From Escherichia phage vB_EcoP_phi296, in the sequence record PV189400.1: 57,221 nucleotides of DNA; one strand, 5' to 3'. The position numbers are program-made. Position 1 is the stretch's first letter. The number at the start of each line of letters is the position of its first letter. Below are positions 39,001 to 42,000 of the stretch, one piece after another.

Positions 39001-42000
39001 GATTTTGTCAATCTCACCTCAAATAATTCAGTGCTGTGTTTATTCTGTTGTTTATGCCAAAAATAAAGGCCGCCATCAGGCAGCCTTGTTGTTCAGTTTA
39101 CCAAGTTCTCTGGCAATCATTGCCGTCGTTCGTATTGCCCATTTATCGACATATTTCCCATCTTCCATTACAGGAAACATTTCTTCAGGCTTAACCATGC
39201 ATTCCGATTGCAGCTTGCATCCATTGCATCGCTTGAATTGTCCACACCATTGATTTTTATCAATAGTCGTAGTCATACGGATAGTCCTGGTATTGTTCCA
39301 TCACATCCTGAGGATGCTCTTCGAACTCTTCAAATTCTTCTTCCATACATCACCTCAAATAAGTGGTTTGCTGCCAAAACAATGAACCATCCGGAAATTC
39401 CAGATAGTTCATAATTCACTCTTCAATACTTCCAACTTACTAATCGCCGATAGATATCCGCGCTGATAGGGCATCATCATTCCTTCGAGCTTGCCACTTC
39501 TTAACTCCTCCCTGAGCAATTGTATTGCTTGATCAATAACCTCTGCCTTAGCGTCCTTTATGGCTTGCTTGCGGGGCTTTGCTTTCTGCTTTGGCAGATT
39601 TCTCAAGCATGATGGAATGTATGTCTGATTCATCACTTACCTCGCTGTCAGTTGTTTTGATTTCCGGTATCCTGCCGCGTAAATGGCTACGTTTGGCAGG
39701 CAAATACTTCCACTGCGTTCATCTTCTTCCTTGCAGCAAAGGCTTCCGAGTGATGCTGCTTTATCTGCTCTGACGCAACCAGAGAGCTTTAGCGCAATTT
39801 TTCGTGCCAGTCGCTGCTCTTGCATTGCCTGTTCACGTTGAGCCTGTCTGCGTGCTCTGCGGCGATTTCTGGCGTTATCGTCAGCCAGATATGTAATGAC
39901 TACTGTCATGTTGACCTCCGATGATTGACTTTGGCGGTGACGCGCCGGGTGCTTATCTTCCGGTTGCCGTCGTGCAGCTGCACTTCACGTCACCCCAAAG
40001 CCAACTACTCTTTGGTTCCCGCATTTCGGCGGGACAATCCCATCAATGTTAAAGAGCCTGCCAATCTGTTCCGTTTGGCTTCCAGCGCCCTGCTGATGGC
40101 TAAAGAATACTGTAGGTATTTTATTGTGTAAATACCCAAGGTATTTATTTTTGGTGAAATAATGATAAGCAAATGAATACAAAGGATATTTATTTTTTCG
40201 GTGTCTGCTTGTTCAGTGCTTTTTATGCGGGATATGTGAAGTGGATCCCGATAGCTATTGCTGCCGGGATTATAGGTTAGTCAGCGAAGGTTAAGACGAG
40301 AATTACCTTAATGATGTCTGCTACAACAGACACGGCCATAGATAAACCAAAGACGATCCAAGCCACAGTGATGTCTTCACTACCATCGTATAGAGTTCCG
40401 TAATCACTGGTGTAAGGCGTAAATGTCGCGCCTTGATACAATAGGTATAAGCTTGATCCATAGAGGATAAATGCAGATATCCCTTGTATTGCTATGATCA
40501 CCAGAATCATGAAACGAGCTGATCTATGCGCCCAAGCCTGGCTTATTTTTTCTGATAGAGATTTCGCAATAAAAGCATGCGCTAAGCCGTAAATTGTCGA
40601 GATTGCCAACATCCCAAAAAAGCTTGCTATAGCGGTTCCAACCATAATCGCCCCTTGCGTGATCAAACCAGCCTTAGTTTTGTCTCAATTGCAACGCCTA
40701 TAATCTTGCAGTTTCCATTGATTGGCACGAGAGGCCATGCAGGATTAAGTCCCTTGAGGTATTTATTTCCGCCGTCGATTATCAGCTTCTTGAATGTTGC
40801 TTCGTTAGAGTCAGAAAGTTTTGCTATGACCAAGCTGCCGTTGATCGCCTCCCTTCCGGTATCGAAAAGAACGAATGTTCCCTCTGGAATGCTTAACCCA
40901 ACCGGTGCCGTCATTGAATCACCTTCCACTTTAAGCCAGAACGCATTACCTTGAATATGCGCGTCAGACTCAAGCCAAACATCTATGTCTTTAATGGTGT
41001 ATGGTTCGCATGCTTCACACCACGAGCCAGCCTGGATACTGCTTAACACCGGATACCTCTTTCCTGCTCTGTATTCCCCTGCATACCTTACGTTGGCATC
41101 GCTCTTAAGGCTTTCTGCCTGTTCTGCAACCTTGGCAGCAATTGACTGGCTAAAATCAGCAATTGAGACTTGCAACAAACGTGCAAAACCAGATGCGACC
41201 TCAACGTTTAGCGCGTTTCTGCCATTAAGATAATGCCCTACCGCTCCTTGGGTGATACCCAGTTCATCAGCGATTGAGTATTGGGTTATTCCCAATTCTT
41301 TCTTTTTTGACTCATACAAAGCCTTAAGCCGCTTAGCGTCTTCGAGCTGTTCTGTCGTCAGTGATTTTTTATTTTCCATAGCTTAATTCTAATAGCTAAG
41401 GTACTTAAACTAAAAATACCCTGAGTATTGATTGCTTTGAATACCTGTAGTATTCTTTGTTCATGGTTAATAACGGAGAGTGCATATGATTCGAATGACA
41501 CTTGCCGATTACGCCAAAATCCATGGACAGGCTAAAGCAGCCAGTGACTTTGGTGTAATCCAGTGCGCTATCAGCAAGGCCATTCTGGCAGGCCGTAACA
41601 TCATGGTTACGGTAAAGCCTGATGGCAGTGTGATTGGAGAGGAAGTTCGTCCTTTCCCAAGCAACAAGAAAAACAAATAGTAACACCGCTCTTTAACAGT
41701 CATGGTCATCATTCCCGCCGAAATGCGGGAATACAACGCGCATAATTTGATGCGCATAACTTCTTATTTGTTAAGGAAATACTTACATATGCAACTTACA
41801 AGTACTCGCAAGAAAGCGAATGCAATTACAAGCAACATCCTGAATCGAATTGCTGTACGTGGTCAGCGAAAGGTTGCCGACGCGTTAGGGATTAATGAAT
41901 CGCAAATTTCGCGATGGAAAGATAGCTTCATCCCCAAAATGGGAATGCTTCTGGCTGTTCTTGAATGGGGTGTTGAAGACGAGGAGTTGGCGGAACTGGC

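Follow-up and report, generated by a model that had tools for sequence, protein, structure and literature searches.

The hkaS gene behind the repressor of HK620-type phages, a candidate for superinfection exclusion at the inner membrane

What does the single small gene between the repressor gene cI and the left operator (OL) of Escherichia phage vB_EcoP_phi296 do for the phage or for its lysogen? The window analysed here is a stretch of 57,221 nt from this phage (sequence record PV189400.1). An earlier note on it had placed an open reading frame (ORF) for a membrane protein in the position that rexA and rexB hold in phage lambda, and had proposed it as a single-gene defence function. We find that this ORF is hkaS, a gene catalogued since 2001 without an assigned function, and not a new kind of element. 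It is translated, is under purifying selection and has been inherited together with one type of repressor. Its product, HkaS, is predicted to be a three-helix membrane protein, and of the roles considered here we lean, tentatively and well short of conviction, towards exclusion of superinfecting phages.

Identity, start codon and selection

The ORF listing gives a 129-residue ORF with a TTG start at 40277..40666 on the minus strand, directly downstream of a co-oriented 238-residue ORF (40663..41379, minus strand). The earlier note adopted this TTG (40664..40666), which made the ORF overlap the cI stop codon by 4 nt. However, all HkaS homologues start at the methionine of the ATG at 40645. The Shine–Dalgarno sequence AAGGGG (40651..40656, minus strand) lies 5 nt ahead of this ATG, and every lineage retains AGGGG or, in the distant variants, AAGGA in this position. 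Of 84 loci, only 63 have the TTG in frame; the remaining 21, which include the G-run length variants and every distant homologue, lack the extension or have it in another frame. Together with the homologue starts, this rules out the TTG start and shows the overlap to be an artefact. Because the homologues begin at the ATG and the Shine–Dalgarno sequence is conserved, we place hkaS at 40277..40645 (minus strand; 122 codons plus stop). It is separated from the cI stop by 17 nt here and by 17–19 nt across 79 related loci. The gene proposed in the earlier note is therefore real and selected, with 122 rather than 129 residues.

The identity of the gene follows from close relatives. Positions 39900-41500 are 100% identical to Escherichia phage vB_EcoP_phi367 and 99% identical to HK620, HK630, mEpX2, HK140, HF4s and HZ41. 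In the GenBank record of HK620 (Clark et al. 2001, as cited in PMC2629481), a gene named hkaS with the product "unknown" lies between the annotated cI and tIMM, OL1-3, pL, nutL and N. HK620 HkaS (AAK28867, AF335538) has 99% amino-acid identity to the protein of the window, the same length and the same position between cI and OL; identity is 99–100% when the unnamed genes of mEpX2, HK630 and phi367 are included. The only family hit of the ORF is PHROG 6534 (phrog_6534, unknown function) with an E value of 2.9e-79, residues 8-129 of the TTG-start version aligning with positions 1-122 of the 122-position profile. The literature searched, whose coverage did not extend to the 2025 E. coli prophage-defence screen of Brenes and Laub, contained no paper that names hkaS together with HK620 and none that ties the gene to a phenotype. 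In the same literature mEpX2, HK630 and HK140 turn up only in genomics or quantitative PCR papers, and a study of P22 SieA employs HK620 merely as a challenge phage (PMC10883804).

The pattern of substitution argues for a functional protein. Between hkaS and a Hafnia-type homologue whose protein is 83% identical, nonsynonymous divergence (dN) is 0.093 and synonymous divergence (dS) 0.69, a dN/dS ratio of 0.13; the corresponding values for cI are 0.022, 0.76 and 0.03. Two Salmonella copies of hkaS have a dS of 0.13 and a dN of 0. Within IMG/VR, the gene is intact and exactly 369 nt long in 80 of 80 loci, which represent 35 nucleotide alleles; these differ by 19 synonymous and 22 nonsynonymous changes, the latter mostly conservative. 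The ratio of nonsynonymous to synonymous polymorphism (pN/pS) in this population is 0.36 for hkaS and 0.04 for cI. Exactly 122 codons are retained in homologues from 100% down to 52% identity, and 38 positions are invariant over eight full-length homologues. From the selection pattern and the intact copies we conclude that hkaS is translated and under purifying selection, which contradicts the view of an untranslated ORF; this selection is looser than that on cI.

A few variants depart from this picture. In rare HkaS proteins (P0006, P0007 and P0009), an N-terminal region of about 40 residues is frameshifted, and the first predicted helix would go missing. In HF4s (MT833387), the tblastn match to hkaS at 28106-28464 is in two pieces. 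These frameshifted or split copies could reflect decay in some prophages or sequencing errors.

The repressor operon and the slot behind cI

The gene upstream of hkaS (40663..41379, minus strand) encodes the repressor of the HK620 immunity type, with Pfam domains HTH_3 and Peptidase_S24 and 99.6–100% identity to the cI proteins of HK620 and mEpX2. A scan for the palindrome AATACN5GTATT with at most one mismatch returned five sites in the window, all of them in OL or the right operator (OR), against a chance mean of 1.07. Three operator-like palindromes (40106-20, 40131-45 and 40176-90) make up the OL region (40106..40190), the one nearest to hkaS lying 86 nt from its stop codon. Two perfect palindromes (41415-29 and 41440-54) form the OR operators (41415..41454) between cI and cro, and both regions have a counterpart in the HK620 annotation. 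The leftward promoter pL (40104..40132, minus strand; TTTACA, a 17-nt spacer and TATTCT) was found by consensus scan and by mapping the HK620 annotation. It is followed by nutL, annotated in HK620 between pL and N, and by the N antiterminator gene (39637..39909, minus strand; Pfam N_peptide, E 5e-15), the first gene of the pL operon. OL and pL thus lie downstream of hkaS, as the earlier note had stated.

The consensus scan of 39600-41800 detected one sigma-70-like site, which is pL, and no promoter-like or terminator-like site between cI and hkaS. Given the 17-nt gap and the lack of room for signals of its own, we infer that hkaS is co-transcribed with cI from the repressor maintenance promoter (PRM) and the repressor establishment promoter (PRE); by analogy with lambda, PRM must lie within the OR region. 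In lambda, rexB is also served by an internal promoter, pLIT, whereas no internal promoter is evident for hkaS in the consensus scan. Expression together with cI in lysogens, from a position like that of rexAB, is therefore well supported by the anatomy of the locus. In the arrangement we propose, hkaS would be the second and last cistron of an operon that reads cI, hkaS, hairpin, OL/pL. Its transcription would then follow that of cI, starting at PRM in every lysogen and at PRE during establishment, and it would be translated from its own Shine–Dalgarno sequence and ATG. The hairpin, AUCCCGG...UCGGGAU without a U tract (40245..40270, minus strand), starts 7 nt past the hkaS stop and is a possible 3′-end or stabilizing element. 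It is kept with loop changes in the Hafnia-type variant, and the Salmonella and metagenomic variants have different hairpins in the same place. An Rfam scan of 39500-41800 gave no match.

Between cI and OL, hkaS is the only conserved ORF. A 35-residue hydrophobic ORF on the plus strand (40173..40280), convergent with hkaS and starting within the third operator-like site, was considered as a partner or toxin gene and rejected as spurious. It is not conserved: it meets a stop after 12 codons in the homologous locus L009, and a run that varies between A6 and A7 breaks it in at least 11 IMG/VR loci. It also has no family match in Pfam, PHROG, PADLOC or NCBIfam. Thus hkaS has no partner gene, in agreement with the earlier note.

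The gene is rare and tightly bound to one repressor type. A word-index search of 5.8 billion proteins yielded 12 clusters with HkaS, and a profile hidden Markov model of HkaS run against 1.84 billion representatives yielded one full-length match and one fragment. By tblastn over 50,697 phage records, hkaS is present in 15, all of the HK620 immunity type, and no homologue was found in 185,579 GTDB species-representative genomes. The order cI, hkaS, OL/pL, N is kept in every homologue examined (Hafnia type, 83% identity; Salmonella Mbandaka, 61%; metagenomic, 55% and 52%), and hkaS directly follows an HK620-type cI in all 79 IMG/VR loci that include upstream sequence. Across these lineages, amino-acid identity is 84–96% for cI and 52–83% for HkaS. 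Pairwise identities group the four lineages alike for both proteins, and we therefore conclude that cI and hkaS diverged together, HkaS at about four times the rate of cI. No swap of cI or hkaS was seen across the four lineages, and HkaS occurs only with HK620-type cI. The module itself is found in carriers of four taxa, namely Lederbergvirus (HK620 and 611R6), Lambdavirus (HK630), Hendrixvirinae (mEpX2) and Sepvirinae (phi367 and the phage of the window). It was also found in 146 of 5,426 complete E. coli genomes (about 2.7%), each with a single match spanning at least 80% of an OL-hkaS-cI-OR query. The hosts are varied and include O111:H8 and O145:H28 strains; among the matches listed, hkaS is annotated as a coding sequence in the 39 that are full-length.

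The same slot behind cI holds different cargo in other phages. It contains rexA and rexB in lambda and a soluble 200-residue protein in Erwinia phage 49, but no gene in P22 or in Serratia phage OS31, whose cI is 71% identical. In phages of the imm434 type (434 CPT_434B_50, L014 2109-2513; Sf6 gene 38, L103 2108-2512; Huey CDS0038, L102 2109-2513), it carries a gene for a secreted protein of 134 residues with an N-terminal signal peptide, and here the 4-nt overlap with the cI stop is genuine. Annotations of this gene conflict, being 'repressor protection protein' (CPT) in one case and PagP-like in the other. Like hkaS, it is a single small gene that is tied to one repressor type, lies ahead of OL/pL and is passed on as part of the immunity module; unlike HkaS, its product is secreted and has no transmembrane bundle, and the two sequences are unrelated (hhalign probability 0.1%). 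The slot is thus a variable cargo site whose contents are not uniformly anti-phage, and the statement in the earlier note that genes in this position are typically exclusion or abortive-infection determinants was too strong.

Topology, relatives and possible functions of HkaS

The description of the product as a small polytopic protein with three membrane spans has held up. Kyte–Doolittle hydropathy marks three hydrophobic segments, and an AlphaFold2 model built from only seven sequences has a mean predicted local distance difference test score (pLDDT) of 92 and a predicted template modelling score (pTM) of 0.79. Its helices cover residues 2-29, 31-38, 41-73 and 89-121, with a small beta hairpin in the loop of residues 74-88. 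The loop of residues 28-44 has three to five Lys/Arg in all eight full-length members, and the loop of residues 71-92 has zero or one Lys/Arg and two to four Asp/Glu. By the positive-inside rule, these charges place the first loop in the cytoplasm and the second in the periplasm, and the protein is therefore modelled with an N-out/C-in topology, presumably in the inner membrane. Transmembrane helix 1 (residues 2-27, periplasmic N terminus; 40565..40642, minus strand) is predicted from hydropathy, the model and loop charge. It leads into the putative cytoplasmic loop (residues 28-44, 40514..40564, minus strand; ...KISQAWAHRxARF), the most conserved part of the protein, with 47% of positions invariant and a short helix at 31-38 in the model. 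Transmembrane helix 2 (residues 45-70; 40436..40513, minus strand) contains the invariant residues Q54, S65, Y67 and Y70. It is followed by the predicted periplasmic loop (residues 71-92; 40370..40435, minus strand), which is acidic, rich in tyrosine and, with 18% invariant positions, the least conserved part. Transmembrane helix 3 (residues 93-120; 40286..40369, minus strand) carries the invariant D110 and K113 and the VLT-A motif (residues 117-121), and the C terminus reads ...VLTFAD. Both of these helices were assigned from hydropathy, the alignment and the model. A cleaved signal peptide at AHA/F was ruled out, as the motif is not conserved in homologues and the N terminus has no basic n-region.

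By profile comparison, HkaS stands outside the RexB, SieA, SieB and holin families. The hhalign probability of the HkaS profile was 0.7% against lambda RexB, 0.5% against the P22 holin gp13, 0.3% against lambda RexA, 0.3% against P22 SieA, and 0.1% against each of P22 SieB and HK620 HkaP. The SieA comparison covers the P22 type, one of three SieA sequence types. A pairwise profile test with P22 gp17 was negative, and hmmsearch scores for the comparators were all at or below 4 bits (-4 bits for P22 SieA). In Pfam, the only hit was TssN at an E value of 0.043, below the cutoff, and PHROG returned families of unknown function only. The remote homology to RexB or SieB raised in the earlier note was thus not borne out, and HkaS matched no defence family in PADLOC, Pfam or NCBIfam. 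Likewise, Pfam, PHROG and hhalign gave no homology to a holin or another housekeeping phage protein.

Similarities to characterized proteins are instead those of position and architecture. RexB, which depolarizes the membrane to exclude T4 rII and other phages, and, by prediction, HkaS are both polytopic proteins of the inner membrane, and the gene of each lies in the lysogenic operon between cI and OL/pL. However, RexB has four transmembrane segments (bioRxiv 10.1101/2021.04.19.439022) and needs RexA, whereas HkaS has three predicted helices and no adjacent rexA-like gene. Lambda RexAB has been reported to modulate the lysis–lysogeny switch, and RexB to bind both CI and lambda O in two-hybrid assays; the third helix of RexB contains a buried acidic residue that is a possible proton sink (all from bioRxiv 10.1101/2021.04.19.439022). 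P22 SieA sits in the inner membrane, where it interferes with ejection proteins and thereby blocks the delivery of DNA (PMC10883804). It resembles HkaS, as predicted, in being a small, prophage-expressed, single-gene product of the inner membrane; by contrast, it has 164 residues and is encoded by an ant moron beside the tailspike gene with its own promoter, and not in the cI operon. The sieB genes of P22 and lambda differ from hkaS in lying in the pL operon, and Pfam gave no SieB match. Class I holins, such as lambda S and P22 gp13, have three helices in an N-out/C-in arrangement. HkaS is similar in size and predicted topology, but its C terminus has no charged tail, it has no dual-start motif, and its gene is outside the lysis cassette; the holin, endolysin and spanin genes of the phage itself lie about 13 kb to the right of hkaS. 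A holin remnant was ruled out on these grounds and by the lack of holin homology. Small membrane-anchored proteins that stop genome entry include HK97 gp15, T4 Imm and lactococcal Sie2009, the last also encoded beside a repressor. No Pfam or PHROG match ties HkaS to any of the three, with which no pairwise comparison was made; helix number differs, and the likeness is one of functional analogy only.

On the reading that we favour, HkaS would be a single-protein exclusion factor of the inner membrane, directed against heteroimmune superinfecting phages. It might interfere with genome entry without killing the host, as do P22 SieA, T4 Imm and HK97 gp15. Both the anti-phage role and the mechanism are speculative, and we hold this reading, drawn by analogy, to be possible rather than probable. 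Several features point towards it. By the anatomy of the locus, hkaS is expressed together with the repressor. HkaS has no cytoplasmic domain able to serve as a sensor or enzyme, it diverges about fourfold faster than cI, and its periplasmic loop is its least conserved part. The module is carried by four virion types, so the function of HkaS is not tied to the morphogenesis or lysis of its carrier, and the holin, endolysin and spanins are encoded elsewhere.

Other observations weigh against an exclusion factor. Neither experiment nor homology points to any function for HkaS: NCBIfam and Pfam contain no match, PADLOC-DB 2.0 gave 0 families at E values up to 10, fold searches with the model yielded generic helical bundles only, and the probabilities against RexB, SieA and SieB were each below 1%. 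It is the cytoplasmic loop, and not the periplasmic face, that is most conserved, and this loop would fit a cytoplasmic partner at least as well as a component of an incoming phage. Strict co-inheritance with one repressor clade is unusual for freely mobile defence cargo. Other cargo of the slot is not anti-phage by annotation, as exemplified by the PagP-like secreted protein of imm434. Finally, the consensus scan of 39600-41800 found no canonical minus-strand terminator after hkaS, where there is only the hairpin without a U tract; this hairpin and the stretch around 40165-40195 are candidates for the 3′ end of the transcript.

Because hkaS is expressed, by anatomy, with cI in every lysogen, it might instead serve lysogenic conversion by altering a host transporter, envelope stress tolerance or colonization fitness. 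The PagP-like annotation in the imm434 slot is consistent with such a role, as is the occurrence of the module in E. coli from varied hosts (146 of 5,426 complete genomes), O111:H8 and O145:H28 strains among them. We nevertheless consider it unlikely, as no sequence tie links HkaS to a transporter or stress family, and its narrow distribution and fast divergence would be more typical of genes in phage–phage conflict. Somewhat less likely again is an abortive-infection effector, in which HkaS oligomers would form a latent pore or ion channel and phage-triggered depolarization would cost both the infection and the cell. The slot and operon are those of lambda rexB, the predicted topology is that of class I holins, and the invariant membrane-buried residues D110 and K113 in helix 3 and Q54 in helix 2 recall the acidic residue in the third helix of RexB. 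Yet hkaS has neither a RexA-like sensor gene beside it nor a cytoplasmic domain that could detect infection, the profile probabilities against RexB and gp13 are 0.7% and 0.5%, and the charged tail typical of holins is absent. Constitutive expression in every lysogen would also demand that the protein do no harm until something activates it, and no such trigger is evident.

We give about the same low credence to a modulator of the genetic switch, that is, a membrane anchor that binds cI, Cro or replication proteins through its cytoplasmic loop and tunes lysogen stability or induction. The exclusive pairing with HK620-type cI through four lineages without a swap and the 47% invariant cytoplasmic loop would suit such a role. 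So would the two-hybrid contacts of RexB with CI and O (bioRxiv 10.1101/2021.04.19.439022) and the 'repressor protection protein' label that CPT gave to the analogous imm434 gene. However, a 17-nt gap without room for recombination may by itself explain the linkage, and related repressors, those of OS31 (cI 71% identical) and P22, manage without such a gene. HkaS also evolves at four times the rate of cI, its very conserved supposed partner, and offers a cytoplasmic surface of only about 17 residues. Least credible of all is a functionless passenger that persists by being wedged between cI and OL. HkaS does lack a known function or domain, its constraint is relaxed relative to cI (pN/pS 0.36 versus 0.04) and a few variants are frameshifted at the N terminus. 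Such a passenger is nonetheless very hard to reconcile with a frame and length of exactly 122 codons kept from 100% to 52% identity, a dN/dS of 0.13, 80 of 80 intact IMG/VR copies, a conserved Shine–Dalgarno sequence, 38 invariant positions in eight full-length homologues and a confident model from only 7 sequences.

Taking exclusion as our preferred reading, HkaS might found a new anti-phage family of single three-helix proteins, wired into the repressor operon and co-evolving with one immunity type, an idea that we regard as open to considerable doubt. The same guarded estimate includes a variant in which exclusion or switch tuning would operate through a RexB-like contact of the cytoplasmic loop with the cognate repressor. 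If exclusion proves true, each HK620-type immunity module would combine repression with exclusion as two layers of protection within 1.1 kb, and hkaS would be a minimal, sensor-less defence gene of 122 codons that needs no partner. The family would then join the few inner-membrane entry blockers and offer a compact model of how they work, and slots behind repressors ("rex slots") would merit systematic screening. Should HkaS turn out to tune the switch, the recent reinterpretation of RexB would gain a further case. As it stands, hkaS is an ORFan and an ordinary uncharacterized piece of prophage cargo, a sensible candidate and no surprise.

Carrier phage and neighbouring features

In the right part of the window, genes for tRNA-Met, tRNA-Arg and tRNA-Arg (50062-50311) are followed about 0.5 kb further on by a nanS-like gene (region 50062-50800). 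Since this leaves no room for stxAB, the window represents an stx-negative phage of the Stx type (Sepvirinae). The carrier thus differs from P22-like HK620, while hkaS is otherwise the same gene. The window is a mosaic, with a left arm 100% identical to phi419, an immunity region 100% identical to phi367 and a right arm 99.8% identical to phi315. From the N start codon to nutL (39934-40015), Stx2c phages and vB_EcoP-611R6 have longer, unrelated sequence (about 340 bp and 90 bp more, respectively), and this segment is a mosaic junction immediately to the left of the immunity module. The insertion was set aside, as it lies between N and nutL, away from hkaS.

Further along the pL operon, between N and ral/cIII, two minus-strand ORFs of 158 residues (38541-39017) and 75 residues (39409-39636) are annotated as hypothetical in phi367; HK620 has hkaQ and hkaP in their place. 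Within OL, the palindrome AATACAAAGGATATT at 40176-40190 is conserved in the Salmonella, Hafnia-type and metagenomic variants and lies within the segment annotated as tIMM in HK620 (40165-40195). The annotated OL3 of HK620, which maps to 40152-40168, contains no such palindrome, and the OL3 and tIMM annotations of HK620 may therefore be misplaced.

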